Assembly: GCA_937894935.1 (NCBI GenBank)
Contig: CALAYC010000332.1
Span: forward strand, 1-53,165
Source of the DNA: an uncultured Verrucomicrobiota bacterium
Lineage (GTDB): Bacteria; Verrucomicrobiota; Verrucomicrobiia; Limisphaerales; JADLHS01
Direction: 5' to 3'
DNA: 53,165 nucleotides
Part shown: piece after piece, positions 2,915-26,384 of the stretch
How the letters are laid out: each line of letters starts with the position of its first letter
Position numbering within the stretch: position 1 is the stretch's first letter
Program-made: the position numbers and the translations under genes
The notes under the pieces: generated by a model
Seen by the model: the letters and a program-made list of their open reading frames with translations, nothing else
The model's database searches: none
What the model was told of the DNA's origin: nothing

Positions 2915-4354
2915 TTAGCAGTTGAGCCGCCATTGGCGCACCAGCTCTGGAAACTGACAGCCTTCGCAAGTCGCCGGTGCGTGGTCGCAAAAATCTCTCA
3001 CAATTTGCAGTAAGCCTTGTTGCGCAGCAGCACTGTTCAATCCGGAACGCGCCGATAACGACCGACCCAGCAGACGTTGGCGTGCTAATCGCAAAATGGA
3101 ATTATCTTCTGCTGCCGGCCATGCGTGATAGCGAGACAGCAACATCGTGCTGAGCTTTGCATTTCGACCGCTTTGAGCGCGTGCGAACAGCCAGGGCAAC
3201 GCAACATTGACGGCCAGATCGGTTACGCGTTGCTCGCCTAACAGCGGTTGCGGTTTGCTCATTCGCGCGGAGCGAAAGGTCCAGTGCCACGACCAGAATT
3301 CATCAGCAGCAACCTGAAAAATTTGCGTCAGAGACGGCAATAATCCGCGGTCCGGGATGGATTGCTGACACCACGATTCGATGTGTTCTACCAGCGCGTC
3401 GTTTTGTGCCCAATGCGCTGCCAGCGCGAGACGCCGCTGCGGATGATTCGCCGGGCGCAGCCCATGAAATCGCCATAAACTTCGCGGCAAAGCACAATCG
3501 GCAAATTCCTCCTGCTCGCGCCACCAATGGTCCCAGATGCGACGCAAATAGTCGTCGGCGACGGAACGTCGGATGGTCACTTCCGTCGGCAACAACCCGC
3601 TCAAACCAAACAGTCGCGCCTGTGTTTTCAGTGGTGAATCGCTGCCGTTGCGCCAGCGGACGCGCGATTCGGCGAGCGATTGCATCGGCCAGATATTGTG
3701 CTTATAGCCCAGTGCGCGAAAGAGGCCTTCCCACAAGGATTGTTCCCAACCGACGTGTTGGGCGCGGGCACGAAATTGCGCGGCTTTATTGTGAAAGCGA
3801 ACATGCGCGGCTTCATGCAACAGGGCAGTCACTGCTTCGCCATCCAGTTCACGCAACGGTGCGCAACATTTGCCCGTGAGGTTTTCAGGTAAGGCGCGGA
3901 CGGAATTGTGTTGCAGTTGCAGATTCAGTTCGGACAGTGGTGCGTCGAGCAGGTTTTTGAGAGCGATGGTGGGCGGATTCGATTTTTTTGCACTGGTTTC
4001 CCAGACGACATGAAGGACGACATGCTTAAAGGCGGGATTGCGGTCGTGCCCATGCGCTCGCCAGCCGTTGTCGTGCAAATCTACTTCCACGTCGCCGGAG
4101 ATGGGTTCGTTGTTACCGAAGCGAATGACCGCGCTGCGAAAATCTGGTCCGCCTTCGACGCTGCCAAAACCCGGATGAAGCACGCGAACGGATTGACCGT
4201 CCAAGGTCTGAATTCGGTCGCGGTGCAACCGTTGATGTTGCCAGATGGCCTGAAGGAGTTTTTCCGGAGGCGCTTCTCCACCGTCGTGCAGTTCCGGGAC
4301 AATGCCGCATTGTAATCGCCATTGCCCGTAAAAGGTGGGAGAGGAAGCGTGCAC
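2915..4354 (-). CDS. DUF2851 family protein
   Basis: LLQAIWQHQRL...LDGQSVRVLHPGFGSVEGGPDFRSAVIRF...GDVEVDLHDNGWRAHGHDRNPAFKHVVLHVVWE matches my memory of the DUF2851 N-terminal signature. Confidence 0.65.
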   Translation of the reverse strand: MHASSPTFYGQWRLQCGIVPELHDGGEAPPEKLLQAIWQHQRLHRDRIQTLDGQSVRVLHPGFGSVEGGPDFRSAVIRFGNNEPISGDVEVDLHDNGWRAHGHDRNPAFKHVVLHVVWETSAKKSNPPTIALKNLLDAPLSELNLQLQHNSVRALPENLTGKCCAPLRELDGEAVTALLHEAAHVRFHNKAAQFRARAQHVGWEQSLWEGLFRALGYKHNIWPMQSLAESRVRWRNGSDSPLKTQARLFGLSGLLPTEVTIRRSVADDYLRRIWDHWWREQEEFADCALPRSLWRFHGLRPANHPQRRLALAAHWAQNDALVEHIESWCQQSIPDRGLLPSLTQIFQVAADEFWSWHWTFRSARMSKPQPLLGEQRVTDLAVNVALPWLFARAQSGRNAKLSTMLLSRYHAWPAAEDNSILRLARQRLLGRSLSARSGLNSAAAQQGLLQIVRDFCDHAPATCEGCQFPELVRQWRLNC

Positions 4355-4458: not shown

Positions 4459-5856
4459 ATGAAATTACGGTCCAAAACGAGCCGTCGGCTGAGCGCGATT
4501 TTAGCGGCGACGCTGCTCGTTCCCGTCGCTGACGCGGCTTCAGCGGCCAGTCCCGCGACGGATATCCGACGCGATCTCACGGTGGCGGCGATTGAAAAGG
4601 TCATGCCGAGTGTCGTGAACATCCGGACCACAGAACTCGTGCGCCGGAATGATCTTTATGAGACGTTTTTCCGGCGCTTCTACGGCCTGCCGGATGTGCC
4701 GCAGATGAAAGAACAGCCCAGCGGCGTCGGTTCAGGAGTGATTATCGACGAAGTCGGCGATGTGGCGTACATCCTGACGAATGTTCACGTGGTGGATCGC
4801 GCGAATCGCGTGCAGGTGCAACTCTGGGATGGCCGCGAGTACGAAGCGGAAAAACTTCTCGGCACGATGCAGCGGGATTTGGCGTTGCTGCGAATTGTGC
4901 GGCGACCGAATGATCCGCCCTTCAAACCCATCACGCTGGCGAAGGATGATGATTTGTTGCTCGGCGAAACCGTCATAGCAGTGGGAAATCCGTTCGGTCT
5001 GGGCGGCTCGGTGTCACGCGGGATTCTCAGTTCCAAGAACCGTCGCACGGATGCGGGCAATCTCAAACTCGATTACCAGGACTGGTTGCAAACCGACGCG
5101 GACATCAATCCGGGCAACAGCGGTGGACCGCTGATTAACGTGCGCGGCGAACTTATCGGCATCAACGTCGCGGTTTTTTCGCCTGACCAGGGCAAAGGTA
5201 CCGGTTTCGCGATTCCGGTGAAACAGGTGGCCGATGCGTTGTCGGACTTTTTCACGTTGGAATGGCATGCGCGGCAATGGTTGGGTTTGCGATTGCGCAA
5301 TACACCGCAGCCATTGACGGTGCGTCACGTGCAACCGGGTAGCCCGGCAGAACGGGCAGGCGCGCGCGTGGGACAACAAATTGTGGAAGTGAACGGCCGG
5401 ACGGTGAGCGGTCTTGCGGAATTTGTTCAGGTCGTTGGCGCATCGCCGGATCAACGCGTGGCGCTCACGGTTGTCGAGAATTCTCAACGTCGGGTGCTCA
5501 ACGTGGAACTCGTTTCGCTCGCCGTATTGAACCGCGAATTGTTGCAACGTCGCCTCGGCCTCAAGACCTCAACGCTCTCGGACGCACAGGCGATGAGCTA
5601 TCAATTGGTCGGAGGCGAAGGCTGGTTGGTGGACGAAGTGGAAGGGAGCAGTCCGGCGGCGCGCGCGCGGTTGGAAAAAGGAATGGTCATCACCGCCATT
5701 GACGGTGTGCCGGTGACGAATCTGGTGAATTTGAGCGATGTGCTGGTGAGCAAAAAGCGAGGCGATACGCTGCAATTGACGATTCGAACGCATACTCGGG
5801 TGAATGATCGTTTCGTGCGCTTGTTAACCGGCCAATTTGATGTGGTGGTGCGATGA
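4459..5856 (+). CDS. HtrA/DegP-family periplasmic serine protease (S1C) with two PDZ-like regions
   Basis: A signal-like N-terminus (MKLRSKTSRRLSAILAATLLVPVADA) is followed by GSGVIID, TNVHVV, DLALL and the catalytic GNSGGPLIN. C-terminal PDZ-like segments are present (GSPAERAG..., SSPAARARLEKGMVITAIDG). I prefer the ATG at 4459 over the TTG at 4444. Confidence 0.9.
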   Translation: MKLRSKTSRRLSAILAATLLVPVADAASAASPATDIRRDLTVAAIEKVMPSVVNIRTTELVRRNDLYETFFRRFYGLPDVPQMKEQPSGVGSGVIIDEVGDVAYILTNVHVVDRANRVQVQLWDGREYEAEKLLGTMQRDLALLRIVRRPNDPPFKPITLAKDDDLLLGETVIAVGNPFGLGGSVSRGILSSKNRRTDAGNLKLDYQDWLQTDADINPGNSGGPLINVRGELIGINVAVFSPDQGKGTGFAIPVKQVADALSDFFTLEWHARQWLGLRLRNTPQPLTVRHVQPGSPAERAGARVGQQIVEVNGRTVSGLAEFVQVVGASPDQRVALTVVENSQRRVLNVELVSLAVLNRELLQRRLGLKTSTLSDAQAMSYQLVGGEGWLVDEVEGSSPAARARLEKGMVITAIDGVPVTNLVNLSDVLVSKKRGDTLQLTIRTHTRVNDRFVRLLTGQFDVVVR

Positions 5857-23675: not shown

Positions 23676-23909
23676 ATGTCTCTCATGAAATACGCGGAAC
23701 GCATCACGTTTGACCCTGAACAATACGGCGGTCGCCCGCGCATCCGGCATTACCGGCTGCGGGTCAAAGATGTGCTGGACATGCTGGCCGGCGGCGCGAC
23801 GGAACAGGAGATTCTCGCCGACTATGCGTTCTTGGAACCGGCAGACATCCGCGCCTGCTATGAGTATGCGGCCCAGCAAGTGGATCATCCCGTCGTGATG
23901 GCCGCTTAA
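23676..23909 (+). CDS. DUF433 domain protein (antitoxin-like), no adjacent toxin partner
   Basis: ITFDPEQYGGRPRIRHYRLRVKDVLDMLAGGATEQEILADYAFLEPADIRACYEYA is the DUF433 signature. Confidence 0.8.
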   Translation: MSLMKYAERITFDPEQYGGRPRIRHYRLRVKDVLDMLAGGATEQEILADYAFLEPADIRACYEYAAQQVDHPVVMAA

Positions 23910-23930: not shown

Positions 23931-24650
23931 TTAATCCTCCGGCGAAGGGCTGGAATTTTTCAACGCCTCAAACAGCCACTTCTGTCGCTTCGTCGCGCTT
24001 TCCGGAAGCTGGCGCGGATTCCATCGCCTCGGGCTGGGCATCACCGCCAAAAGCTGGGAAATCTGTTCCACGGTCAAGTCCGACGCGCGACAGTTGTAAT
24101 GATAATGAGCGGCGGTTTCCAAACCATAGACCCCGTTTCCAAACTCGATGACATTGATGTACAGCTCCATGATTCGCCGCTTGGACAGCAACAGTTCCAT
24201 CCACATCGTATAGTAGGCTTCCAAGCCTTTCCGCACCCAAGACCGGCCCTGCCACAAAAACAGCGAGCGCGCACATTGCTGAGTAATGGTTGAAGCTCCG
24301 CGCGGAGGCGCACCCGTCGCCTTGGAGTTCTCAAGCGAGATTTTAATCCCCGTCCAGTCAAACCCGTGATGTTGGTAGAATCCTGTATCCTCCGCCATCA
24401 GCACGCCGCTCAGAAACAAGGGCGGCGCATTTTTCAATTCCAACCAGAGCATTTGCTGCCGTTTGACCGGTTGGCCGGTTGAATCTATGCGAAAACGATC
24501 AAAAAATCTTGGTCCCGAACTGGAGGGATTGACAAAGCGCACGAACAAAACCTGTGCAGGCGGCAGGTAGAGCGGCGCGGCCAAAAGCACAATCCCCACG
24601 GCTCGCTTGTGACGCCAGATCCATCCGTTAAGTTTCTTTAGCCGGAGCAT
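23931..24650 (-). CDS. mtgA: Monofunctional biosynthetic peptidoglycan transglycosylase (GT51)
   Basis: LMAEDTGFYQHHGFDW...GASTITQQCARSLFL...RKGLEAYYTMWMELLLSKRRIMELYINVIEFG. Confidence 0.9.
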   Translation of the reverse strand: MLRLKKLNGWIWRHKRAVGIVLLAAPLYLPPAQVLFVRFVNPSSSGPRFFDRFRIDSTGQPVKRQQMLWLELKNAPPLFLSGVLMAEDTGFYQHHGFDWTGIKISLENSKATGAPPRGASTITQQCARSLFLWQGRSWVRKGLEAYYTMWMELLLSKRRIMELYINVIEFGNGVYGLETAAHYHYNCRASDLTVEQISQLLAVMPSPRRWNPRQLPESATKRQKWLFEALKNSSPSPED

Positions 24651-25074
24651 TTGCTCTCAATGTTTCACGCGTAATCACCACCCCGCCGCCAACCAACAGA
24701 AACAACAAGACGCCGTACGTAAAATAATCCAAGGCACGATTCAGGGCTTTGACCGGAAAAATCCCAAAACATCCGCACCCGCTCACTCCTTTTGAGATCA
24801 TCCAAGCGTGATAGCCTGTGAATAAGACAGCAGCCGTATAAACGACGTAAGCCTTTGAACTTACTGAGATGCCATTGGTCAGCACCGCCAACAGGATGCC
24901 TGCTTCAAAAACAGCCGCGAAGAACAAAAATTGCCGTATGCTCAAAAACGTGAACATCCCATGCGCCGCCACTAATCGCTCTGGCACAAGAGCAATGGAT
25001 AAAAGTTTGGCGACAATGCTCAGGCTGAAAATAACCACCGCCATTCGCACATAAACCCGGAGCGTCATAGTCAA
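24628..25074 (-). CDS. MauE/DoxX-family redox-associated membrane protein
   Basis: It has four hydrophobic helices and the GCGCFG motif typical of MauE-like proteins. It overlaps both neighbours, by 4 nt upstream and 23 nt downstream. Confidence 0.65.
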   Translation of the reverse strand: MTMTLRVYVRMAVVIFSLSIVAKLLSIALVPERLVAAHGMFTFLSIRQFLFFAAVFEAGILLAVLTNGISVSSKAYVVYTAAVLFTGYHAWMISKGVSGCGCFGIFPVKALNRALDYFTYGVLLFLLVGGGVVITRETLRANAPAKET

Positions 25075-25877
25075 TAGACGGAGTTGAAGAAATTATCCGT
25101 ACCCGCCGAGACAAACTCCCACGGAATCCATTTCTTTGTCCCCGGCTCAAAATAACTCCGCAGATACACTGGAGCCGGAGTTTTATTTGCCTGCCGAACG
25201 ATCGCGTTAAAAGTAATGACCTTGATTTCTCCGTTTTGTTTCAGCAATTCTTGCGGCGTCGGACGCGGCGCATAATAGGAAAAATGTGTTAGCACACTGT
25301 CATTGGCCCGCCGGGCCGCTATCTCGCCGAGGGGCGCGGGCCAGTAAGACAACGCTTCAACCGTGAGGATTGCCTCTTGCAGGGCGATTTCTACCCATTG
25401 TCCGCCAGCCCGTTTGCGCTCTGGAATCTCGATATGCTCCCAGAACTGCTCCAGCACGTCCTCGCTTGCCGCCGGAGGATTCAGGCCCAGCTTGCCAAGT
25501 CTGTTCCGGTCGAAATCAACGACGCTCTTGACGAATTGACCGTCAGGAGAGCCAAACCGGAAATTTCGGAAATGATCAAACTCATCGCTGTGGTGGTAAA
25601 ATAAAAAGCTGAACAAGAGTGAATCCCACGCGCGCGCCTCTTCGGAACTCATTTGATAGCCGCCTTCCTTTTTGATTTTTGTCAAGCTGGAGCGAAAGGC
25701 AAACGAGTCTTGAATTACCGTAAAATCCAACTTGGCCCATTCGTTCGTGAATGTCGGACTTGAAAGCACAACATGCTCGGGCGGGCGATGTGGTGAAAAA
25801 ACATTGAGCAACAAGAAAACTCCGATGCAAACAACAATCGGCCCCATAAGTAGGAGGGCAAGCTTTTTAGAATTCAT
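25071..25877 (-). CDS. Hypothetical membrane-anchored protein (268 aa)
   Basis: MNSKKLALLLMGPIVVCIGVFLLLNVF is followed by a soluble domain with no Cys. I recognised no family. I prefer the ATG at 25877, and an alternative ATG at 25913 abuts the palindrome. Confidence 0.5.
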   Translation of the reverse strand: MNSKKLALLLMGPIVVCIGVFLLLNVFSPHRPPEHVVLSSPTFTNEWAKLDFTVIQDSFAFRSSLTKIKKEGGYQMSSEEARAWDSLLFSFLFYHHSDEFDHFRNFRFGSPDGQFVKSVVDFDRNRLGKLGLNPPAASEDVLEQFWEHIEIPERKRAGGQWVEIALQEAILTVEALSYWPAPLGEIAARRANDSVLTHFSYYAPRPTPQELLKQNGEIKVITFNAIVRQANKTPAPVYLRSYFEPGTKKWIPWEFVSAGTDNFFNSVY

Positions 25878-25915
25878 GCAATCTTCGAGTTTTGGCTCTA
25901 TAATTTGGAACATTC

Positions 25916-25947
25916 GGGCGAAACAACAAAATTTTGTTGTTTCGCCC
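25916..25947. repeat. Perfect 32-bp palindrome (intercistronic stem-loop)
   Basis: GGGCGAAACAACAAAA|TTTTGTTGTTTCGCCC is exactly self-complementary. It lies between the micro-protein stop (25967) and the next gene. Confidence 0.9.
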
Positions 25948-25966
25948 GATGATTTGTATCGCTCGA

Positions 25967-26164
25967 TTAACTACACGACGTACAAACTGGATAGCCAGCA
26001 TCTGAACATGAGCACGAACAGGACTGGCCACTGTTACAATATCGGGCATCACTTCCCTTTGCACATGCGATAGCGCATGCTGGCGAATCGTTAGTGCCTG
26101 CAAAGGCAATGTATCCCGACACGCAGAACAACACGGTCAGGCCAACAACTAATAGCTTCTTCAT
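25967..26164 (-). CDS. Secreted Cys/Ser-rich micro-protein (65-aa precursor, about 43-aa mature)
   Basis: My translation is MKKLLVVGLTVLFCVSGYIAFA|GTNDSPACAIACAKGSDARYCNSGQSCSCSCSDAGYPVCTSCS. It has a Sec-type signal with an AFA cleavage site and 8 Cys in the mature part, and AAGGA lies 7 nt upstream of the ATG. It is the C-terminal part of track ORF 25967..26293. Confidence 0.55.
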   Translation of the reverse strand: MKKLLVVGLTVLFCVSGYIAFAGTNDSPACAIACAKGSDARYCNSGQSCSCSCSDAGYPVCTSCS

Positions 26165-26255
26165 TGCGTTCCTTTTGTTGTTTGTTTTATACACACCAAC
26201 ATTCCAAATATTCCGAACAGGAAATGGAGTTTTAGGTGCGACGCTGCGATAGTTA

Positions 26256-26264
26256 CCCCCCCCC
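26256..26264. repeat. C9 (G9 on the minus strand) homopolymeric tract upstream of the micro-protein gene
   Basis: Read directly: agttaCCCCCCCCCattaag. On the minus strand it lies between a TTGACA hexamer (26275-26280) and TAACTAT. Confidence 0.9.
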
Positions 26265-26334
26265 ATTAAGGGCCTGTCAATAATTATTCGCATTTTACAT
26301 GCTTATGCAAAAAGAGCCTGATCACTCCAAAGAC

Positions 26335-26360
26335 AAAAAAGCGAGGCCGTTAGACCTCGC
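26335..26360 (-). terminator. Rho-independent terminator after rpmB (potentially bidirectional)
   Basis: The stem GCGAGG-ccgttaga-CCTCGC is flanked by A6 on one side and T4 on the other. Confidence 0.6.
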
Positions 26361-26384
26361 TTTTCGTTTGAAATGGATTCCGGC

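Follow-up and report, generated by a model that had tools for sequence, protein, structure and literature searches.

Organization and conservation of the operon

The stretch of DNA analysed here, 53,165 nucleotides (nt) from an uncultured Verrucomicrobiota bacterium (GenBank assembly GCA_937894935.1, contig CALAYC010000332.1, positions 1 to 53,165; hereafter the window), carries on its minus strand, from position 26164 to 23931, an operon of four genes that encode, in this order, a small Cys-rich peptide, a 268-amino-acid (aa) membrane protein, a four-transmembrane (TM) protein of the MauE type and the peptidoglycan polymerase MtgA (Table 1). We regard the reality of this four-gene module as nearly certain. 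The original prediction, made from the sequence of the window by itself, had described a module of the first three genes; these are co-conserved as it proposed, but the unit comprises four genes, mtgA being its invariant last member in all lineages with enough downstream sequence (9/9). Given this invariant position, any explanation of the module must include peptidoglycan glycan synthesis.

As judged by comparative sequence analysis, Verrucomicrobiota and more distant uncultured lineages have inherited the operon as one block. The neighbourhood survey covered 11 lineages (the window, L001, L004, L008, L009, L015, L016, L018, L019, L020 and L022) rather than all 116 clusters of the wider 268-aa family described below, and neighbourhoods were inspected for seven of the distant cluster representatives. 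A tblastn map of the loci gave the order peptide, 268-aa gene, MauE-like gene and mtgA in the window, L001, L004, L008, L009, L015 and L016. Two paralogues of the 268-aa family flank the MauE-like gene in L018 (367-2444), where the order is peptide, 264-aa paralogue, MauE-like gene, 266-aa family member and mtgA; despite this change, the block still begins with the peptide and ends with mtgA. The loci of L019, L020 and L022 are incomplete yet consistent with the block order, and in L019 and L020 a membrane protein with a CXC motif follows the 268-aa-family gene before the contig ends.

In every one of the 11 lineages, a small open reading frame (ORF) with a signal peptide and many Cys, homologous or analogous to that of the window, lies directly upstream of the 268-aa-family gene. 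Small exported Cys-rich ORFs thus recur beside this subfamily of MauE proteins (11/11), as had been anticipated, and none of the syntenic loci in relatives is without one. Nor is the MauE-like gene conserved merely with mtgA, since the peptide and the 268-aa gene accompany it across lineages, even where identity within the 268-aa family is only 20-27%. Coupling is tight throughout, with a gap of 2-3 nt between the 268-aa gene and the MauE-like gene and an overlap of 23-29 nt between the latter and mtgA; for the window, the predicted overlap of 23 nt (mtgA start at 24650, MauE-like stop at 24628) was reproduced exactly.

The flanks, on the other hand, differ in every lineage, with rpmB, rsmE, mrp or tgt upstream and smpB/DUF433, a transposase, upp-pyrB or genes for extracytoplasmic function (ECF) sigma factors downstream, and therefore the block itself is the unit retained. 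Plasmid and phage databases searched by tblastn, as well as a PADLOC search for defence systems, gave no match for the module, which we therefore consider not to be mobile. A genome scan and a metagenome scan with the peptide alignment returned only close relatives, and two metagenome-assembled genomes (MAGs) of the close clade carry the label 'Verrucomicrobiota bacterium'.

Table 1. Operon genes and associated elements in the window, in order of transcription
Feature	Position	Strand	Basis and remarks
rpmB intrinsic terminator	26336..26365	minus	Terminator scan; stem of 13 bp with a T-run after it
Promoter-like region and leader of ~100-140 nt	26165..26311	minus	Promoter scan and sequence
65-aa pre-peptide gene	25967..26164	minus	ORF list; orthologues in every syntenic locus
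Stem-loop GGGCGAAACAACAAAA/UUUUGUUGUUUCGCCC, perfect 16-bp stem	25914..25949	minus	Folding; 17 nt past the peptide stop
Gene for 268-aa type II membrane protein	25071..25877	minus	Predicted TM helix at about residues 3-26, remainder predicted periplasmic
Gene for 146-aa MauE-family protein	24628..25068	minus	Four TM; Pfam MauE 18.3 bits; homologues match PF07291
mtgA, monofunctional GT51, 239 aa, N-terminal TM helix	23931..24650	minus	Pfam Transgly E = 1.7e-46, residues 63-229

The small Cys-rich peptide

The first gene encodes a pre-peptide with a predicted 22-aa Sec-type signal peptide, MKKLLVVGLTVLFCVSGYIAFA, whose cleavage before a Gly would leave a mature peptide of 43 aa, GTNDSPACAIACAKGSDARYCNSGQSCSCSCSDAGYPVCTSCS, with the Cys framework C-x3-C-x8-C-x5-C-x-C-x-C-x7-C-x2-C. 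By inspection, the signal peptide is built of MKK, LLVVGLTVLFCVSGYI and AFA ahead of the Gly, that is, a basic n-region, a hydrophobic h-region and small residues at -3/-1, and the same pattern is kept in the 10 peptides with a complete N-terminus. Our recount of the mature peptide returned the 8 Cys and 11 Ser/Thr in 43 aa that had been described. The 65-aa ORF of the original prediction is likewise genuine, but the gene does not start at the ATG at 26293: the ATG at 26164 (MKKLL...) is conserved in all homologues. As the start of a 108-aa ORF, the ATG at 26293 was rejected, being not conserved and lying within the promoter-like region just after the rpmB terminator.

Substitution patterns indicate that the ORF is a real gene under purifying selection with a fixed Cys framework. 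Among orthologues, non-synonymous differences amount to 0.14-0.38 per site (pN) and synonymous differences, which are saturated, to 0.6-0.9 (pS), and the ratio dN/dS is 0.05-0.37 where computable. The family ranges across lineages from 6 to 8 Cys and from 35 to 46 aa in mature length, with T24, N25, P28, four Cys, G46, G57 and P59 as its invariant residues. The orthologues in L015 and L016, next to a partner 268-aa protein that is only 33% identical, share the eight-Cys framework, with two Cys spacers longer by one or two residues in the L016 peptide. At 24-27% identity within the 268-aa family, the peptide of L018 reads ADTNDPPTCVISCNGNLGPCYNGQECYCDGGTPKCK, and at 19% identity that of L022 has 8 Cys and is related at an hhalign probability of 91%. 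The L020 contig holds a Cys-rich C-terminal peptide fragment at its edge.

The number of Cys is even in 9/10 complete peptides. Both Cys5 and Cys7 are lost in the L004/L008 lineage, which is what a Cys5-Cys7 disulfide would predict, though the joint loss is probably a single evolutionary event. The Ser/Thr content, by comparison, is not conserved, with 4-5 such residues in L018 and L022 versus 11 in the window peptide. The peptide is 19% Cys, with CxCxC and CxxC motifs, and has no His, and it keeps Tyr/Trp and Pro residues; conserved aromatics together with Pro are typical of disulfide mini-proteins. Pfam, NCBIfam and the PDB gave no match for it. At the cleavage site, the lipobox pattern [LVI][ASTVI][GAS]C was not found, as the nearest string, VLFC, has Phe at -1 and its Cys is not conserved (LFAM in L004).

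Two further observations concern the annotation of this region. A 52-aa ORF antisense to the signal-peptide region (window 26094-26252, plus strand) looks conserved in other loci because the sense strand is conserved, and its conservation does not count as evidence of a second gene. Gene callers often miss the peptide ORF or place antisense or extended ORFs over it: the peptide gene is uncalled in an NCBI MAG, and public gene calls include a 268-aa-family member with an N-terminal extension of ~60 aa over the peptide gene and an antisense 155-aa ORF in place of the MauE-like gene (L016 174-1154 and 1229-1696; L001 5363-6001).

The 268-aa protein family

The second gene encodes a protein with a single Cys (residue 17), which lies inside the TM helix, so that the soluble part has none, as had been stated. 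Three close homologue clusters were found among 5.8 billion proteins, with a small Cys-rich signal-peptide ORF directly upstream in each of their loci, and a HMMER profile search added 116 more distant cluster representatives, all of about 260-300 aa. Pfam had no match in 40/40 scanned family members, NCBIfam and PADLOC likewise gave none, and a sequence profile of the family found no match among PDB sequences.

An AlphaFold2 (AF2) model from a 40-sequence alignment, which was built from the HMMER representative search, reached a predicted local distance difference test score (pLDDT) of 94.3 and a predicted template modelling score (pTM) of 0.85, and shows a TM helix at the N-terminus and an alpha/beta domain in the periplasm; a run on a 4-sequence alignment was unusable (pLDDT 37.5). 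Foldseek searches with the model gave no significant match, the best E being 0.27 in the PDB and 0.15 in BFVD. NTF2-like, hot-dog and PAS folds appeared among the weak matches, with template modelling scores of at most 0.43, and no fold was assigned. The earlier description of a protein outside any characterised family thus stands after profile (Pfam, NCBIfam), structure (Foldseek) and PDB sequence searches, and the protein is the founding member of an uncharacterised family.

Only W47, F106, R107, A221, W250 and P252 are invariant or near-invariant in this family. Since nucleophiles, acids and metal ligands are absent from this set, and Cys from the periplasmic part, the protein is unlikely to be an enzyme and, on the evidence of its residues, cannot be a thiol-disulfide oxidoreductase. 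It is likely to be a binder or scaffold instead, as far as the conservation pattern allows a reading.

A variant architecture was seen in two independent assemblies, where P0139 and P0061 (L026 6001-7614; L027 821-2434), of 532-537 aa, join an ECF sigma factor (regions 2 and 4) through TM segments to a C-terminal domain of the 268-aa family, at a locus without Cys-rich peptide, MauE or mtgA. This fusion may be a transmembrane sigma factor in one polypeptide with the 268-aa-type domain as its sensor, and it fits the idea of the 268-aa domain as an extracytoplasmic binding or sensing module.

The MauE-like protein

MauE proteins from two phyla replace DsbB in E. coli by means of a CXC motif, usually CGC and then FG, which lies in their periplasmic TM3-TM4 loop; near their predicted quinone site, TM1 has a conserved Lys and TM2 a conserved Glu (bioRxiv 10.64898/2026.03.05.709764). 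All of these signatures are present in the window protein, namely the TM1 Lys (IVAKLLS), the TM2 Glu55 (AVFEAGI) and, in the TM3-TM4 loop, GCGCFG at residues 97-102 (Cys98 and Cys100). A hydropathy scan together with the positive-inside rule predicts a cytoplasmic N-terminus, four TM helices and an external CXC loop. PF07291 is the top family for 11/11 module-linked homologues (best E 1.2e-16), and P0006, which is 78% identical to the window protein, has a precomputed PF07291 match. E55, C98 and C100 are invariant in 11/11 homologues, where the motif occurs as CGC, CNC or CSC; the FG pair after it is kept in the closer members, and the TM1 Lys in 10/11, with Gln in P0007. The proposal of a MauE-like protein with a GCGCFG motif and four predicted TM helices is therefore upheld; the window protein belongs to the MauE family by its sequence signatures, and we consider it quite probable that it acts as a thiol oxidase.

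One detail of the earlier description needs correction. The ORF is present, but an overlap of 4 nt with the 268-aa gene arises only if translation begins at an upstream TTG, and is probably spurious; the conserved ATG at 25068, which lies 2 nt past the stop of the 268-aa gene, gives the length of 146 aa that all homologues have.

MtgA

The product of the last gene has the catalytic motif AEDTGFYQHHG (pattern EDxxFxxHxG) and no transpeptidase domain. Module-linked MtgA proteins carry an invariant Cys in GT51 motif 2 (TITQQC, 9/9), at a position that we take to be usually Leu or Val, and 8/9 have a second Cys (following N, K, D or G and preceding RASDLT), which is missing in L018. We considered this Cys pair as a candidate disulfide within MtgA, and hence as a candidate target of MauE, with the exception of L018.

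Promoter-like region, leader and hairpin

The peptide gene is preceded by several elements, some of which recur across lineages. A promoter-like element, TTTGCA-17-AATAAT, lies at 26311-26283, and TTGACA at 26280-26275 is followed after 10 nt by a G9 tract at 26264-26256. An element of the form T[TG]GAC[AT]-N9/10-homopolymer recurs ~100-140 nt upstream of the peptide ATG. Its homopolymer is G9 in the window, in the L007/L009/L013 group (10/10 assemblies; L009 2013-2021) and in the very distant L018 (23-31), T8 in L004 (about 5625-5660) and T6 in L008; in L001 the frame is present but has no homopolymer. No variation in homopolymer length was seen. The element could be a promoter spacer, with possible phase variation, or a leader element. 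Just before the peptide ATG stands an A/C-rich stretch with a Shine-Dalgarno sequence, AACAAACAACAAAAGGAAC, with AAAAGGAAC preceding the ATG at 26164 in the window, and such an A/C-rich stretch (AACAAACAACAAAAGGAA) is found before the ATG in all lineages.

A hairpin follows the peptide gene, starting about 17-23 nt after the stop across lineages. That of the window has a folding energy of -28.4 kcal/mol (z = -7.4), and hairpins of unrelated sequence occupy the equal position in 9/10 folded lineages (z -2.2 to -7.4), the exception being L022, which is ambiguous; with the perfect hairpin seen by eye in L020, the total is 10/11 lineages. Like most of these hairpins, that of the window has no U-tract, whereas the rpmB terminator of the same window has one. 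Since U-tracts are mostly absent, we read the hairpin as an attenuator or mRNA-stabilising element, which probably uncouples the level of the peptide from that of the downstream genes. Rfam contains no family that matches the leader or the hairpin.

Surroundings of the operon

Together with rpmB, which was identified upstream by Pfam Ribosomal_L28, the small ORF, the 268-aa ORF, the 146-aa ORF and mtgA form a series of five co-directional minus-strand genes, and all ORFs of the original prediction were found on this strand as first described. The rpmB terminator lies outside the module and is its upstream limit. Housekeeping genes surround the module in the window (NUDIX, rpoZ-like, smpB, DUF433, rpmB, DUF1015 and a CDF transporter), and the cation-efflux (CDF) gene is ~2 kb away. 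The DUF433 (antitoxin-like) gene, at 23676-23909 on the plus strand between smpB and the end of mtgA, has no partner toxin gene that was obvious to us.

The module had also been described as an AT-richer islet. The hand counts of G+C behind this description are exact (21/60, 30/60 and 43/60 in the three lines of sequence quoted), and G+C is indeed lower, at 48.7% for 24628-26293 versus 54.9% for the whole window, but the dip is modest and uneven, as the middle of the 268-aa gene reaches 53-59%.

Proposed mechanism

We propose that the operon encodes a module in which MauE takes part in the oxidative folding of a periplasmic mini-protein, and that this mini-protein works with MtgA; we put the probability of this reading at roughly 0.5. 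From sequence inspection, the AF2 model and hydropathy, each of the four products is predicted to have its functional part in the periplasm. The promoter and the long leader, with its A/C-rich end and strong Shine-Dalgarno sequence, would drive high expression of the 65-aa pre-peptide, and the hairpin past the peptide gene would lower or uncouple expression of the three downstream genes, so that the peptide would be made in excess. The peptide would be exported by the Sec route and cleaved after AFA, and its 6-8 Cys would be oxidised to 3-4 disulfides in the periplasm. Electrons from this oxidation would pass to the periplasmic CGC site of the co-encoded MauE and on to quinone, in a DsbB-like manner. 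The membrane-anchored 268-aa protein would serve as the periplasmic binder or scaffold of the peptide, and the folded mini-protein and its binder might then act at the membrane with MtgA, as cofactor, regulator or structural partner of peptidoglycan synthesis. This last step is the most tentative, and we hold any specific effect on MtgA to be somewhat doubtful.

Several observations weigh against this proposal. Three independent assemblies of conspecific strains (L013, L024 and L025), with 99.8% identity to the MauE-positive L007 and 98.9% to L009, have lost nearly the whole MauE-like gene through a clean deletion of ~400 bp (L009 positions 3444-3849; site in L013 at 4807-4818), yet their genes for the 8-Cys peptide, the 268-aa protein and MtgA are all intact. 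A second, independent disruption is found in the window's own lineage, where P0008 (a Logan contig of 1463 nt) encodes a MauE-like protein with an in-frame deletion of 28 aa that takes the TM2 Glu and most of TM2-TM3. These deletions show that cells are viable without MauE, and the peptide may have another oxidase in its place or besides it. The deletions are too recent to tell whether the peptide persists in the long term without MauE. In addition, MauE has been described as a generalist that probably acts via a thioredoxin-fold partner (bioRxiv 10.64898/2026.03.05.709764), and no thioredoxin-fold CXXC partner is encoded in the block. The window copy of MauE itself falls below the Pfam gathering threshold (18.2-18.3 bits versus 27, E about 0.003). 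The peptide of L019, with 7 Cys, has no detectable homology to the TNDPP class and is counted as a positional analogue only. Finally, the role that we assign to MtgA is suggested by gene order alone.

Alternative explanations

The strongest alternative is an envelope operon without a pairing of enzyme and substrate, in which MauE would be a general or redundant thiol oxidase, or would serve MtgA or other envelope proteins, and MtgA would have two independent accessories, the peptide and the 268-aa protein, oxidised by the cell's own disulfide system. The generalist activity of MauE in replacing DsbB (bioRxiv 10.64898/2026.03.05.709764) speaks for it, as do the retention of the rest of the operon in MauE-deleted strains, the constant presence of mtgA in the block and the unusual Cys of the module-linked MtgA proteins, of which the first is invariant and the second nearly so. 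We nevertheless think it unlikely, although it keeps a real share of the probability, because MauE stays beside the peptide and the 268-aa gene down to 20-27% identity of the 268-aa family, even with the changed order of L018, and because of the tight coupling of the MauE-like gene to both its neighbours.

The original prediction had named three other possibilities, a toxin or bacteriocin, a metallothionein-like metal binder and a peptide that is ribosomally synthesized and modified after translation (RiPP); each retains some probability but is weakened, by the lack of an exporter, the paired loss of Cys and the lack of a modifying enzyme, respectively. A secreted disulfide-rich antimicrobial peptide, such as a defensin-like binder of lipid II, would account for the additional MtgA as self-protection, with maturation or immunity as the task of MauE and the 268-aa protein, and it would be consistent with a peptide that is small, Cys-rich and predicted to be Sec-exported, with a hairpin after the structural gene as in many bacteriocin operons, and with the candidate peptide clusters with mauE proposed in Streptomyces (PMC7794033). 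Yet there is no outer-membrane exporter, no ABC or C39 transporter and no peptide paralogue; the peptide is present as a single copy per locus, its divergence over deep lineages is shared by the other components, housekeeping genes lie around the module, and plasmid or phage copies were not found. Moreover, a Sec signal in a diderm delivers to the periplasm only. We therefore judge this explanation improbable.

A comparably low probability is given to a periplasmic metallothionein-like metal binder with reduced thiols, for which the CxCxC and CxxC motifs, the 19% of Cys and the nearby CDF gene could be cited. No other lineage, however, has the CDF gene linked to the module. Metallothioneins are cytoplasmic, have no aromatics and use Cys/His ligands, whereas this peptide has a signal peptide and no His, its conserved Tyr/Trp and Pro fit disulfide mini-proteins, and its Cys are lost in pairs, the count being even in 9/10; it would also reside in an oxidising compartment, with an oxidising enzyme encoded alongside. 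Least probable is a RiPP precursor with modifications beyond disulfides (lanthionine or other crosslinks) made by the 268-aa protein as a new modifying enzyme: a core rich in Ser, Thr and Cys and a family without characterised relatives would suit it, but Pfam and NCBIfam found no LanB/C/M-type or other modifying enzyme in the conserved block, as had been noted before, nor does the block hold a radical SAM, YcaO or protease/transporter gene, the leader is a Sec signal peptide, the 268-aa family conserves only W, F, R, A, W and P and no nucleophile, acid or metal ligand, and the Ser/Thr content is not kept.

Comparison with known systems

The closest likeness to the proposed pairing of MauE and peptide is that of MauE/MauD and MauA in methylamine dehydrogenase clusters. 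The MauE-like protein shares with MauE the CXC-FG loop, the Lys of TM1 and the Glu of TM2, its four TM helices and the periplasmic side of the loop being predicted, and in both cases the gene stands beside one for a small exported protein dense in disulfide-forming Cys. The systems differ in that the block described here is without mauA, mauB, mauD and mauG, none of which was found at any locus, whether inside the conserved block or beside it, and without a thioredoxin-fold partner. Whereas MauA is the small enzyme subunit, of roughly 130 aa, the putative substrate here is a peptide of 35-46 aa; the partners are a family without characterised relatives and MtgA, and the MauE copy of the window is divergent (18 bits against PF07291). 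DsbB/DsbA and VKOR are alike in the proposed chemistry, in which periplasmic thiol oxidation would feed the membrane quinone, but DsbB and VKOR are unrelated in sequence and have two Cys pairs versus the single CXC pair of the MauE-like protein, and they are stand-alone housekeeping genes, while the MauE-like gene lies in a dedicated operon with a candidate substrate.

A precedent for peptides encoded with MauE comes from Streptomyces, where decRiPPter found candidate RiPP families with mauE or mauD homologues (PMC7794033). There, too, a MauE homologue adjoins a predicted small precursor peptide and peptide maturation was suggested, the link being a prediction in both cases; those clusters belong to another phylum and are not described with a Sec signal peptide, mtgA or a member of the 268-aa family. 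The chemistry that we propose is thus already of a known kind, that is, disulfide formation of the MauE/DsbB type and peptide clusters with mauE in Streptomyces. OmcA and OmcB are Cys-rich envelope proteins of the disulfide-cross-linked outer-membrane complex of Chlamydia, OmcA being a lipoprotein. That complex resembles the present system as a case of small, very Cys-rich exported proteins in a bacterium of the Planctomycetes-Verrucomicrobia-Chlamydiae (PVC) group, tied to the envelope and to periplasmic disulfide chemistry (context in PMC6752827). The Omc proteins have, however, no sequence similarity to the peptide described here, which is without a lipobox, is far smaller and is encoded with a peptidoglycan polymerase. 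Our literature search found no description of the combination of Sec-exported Cys-rich mini-proteins, the 268-aa family, MauE and MtgA.

Significance

The proposal that MauE is a major DsbB-like route of disulfide formation dates only from 2026, and few natural substrates of MauE are known outside methylamine dehydrogenase. The operon offers a candidate enzyme-substrate pair, consisting of MauE and a 43-aa peptide with four predicted disulfides, together with natural MauE-deletion strains as a comparison. It also ties a family of ~116 clusters and commonly mis-annotated exported mini-proteins to MtgA, a polymerase of whose regulation and partners little is understood, above all in Verrucomicrobiota. 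Should the link to MtgA prove functional, the module would be an accessory system of a new kind in cell-wall synthesis. Here we further speculate, as an unlikely extension that goes well beyond the proposal above, that the peptide and the 268-aa protein might form a new periplasmic ligand-receptor pair controlling glycan-strand synthesis by MtgA, in which the disulfide state set by MauE would be the switch and whose receptor domain would have been recruited as the sensor of the ECF sigma factor. In this picture, the G9/T8 homopolymer of the promoter or leader may add a regulated or phase-variable layer of expression. Were this true, the operon would be a redox-gated cell-wall synthesis module specific to this bacterial group.

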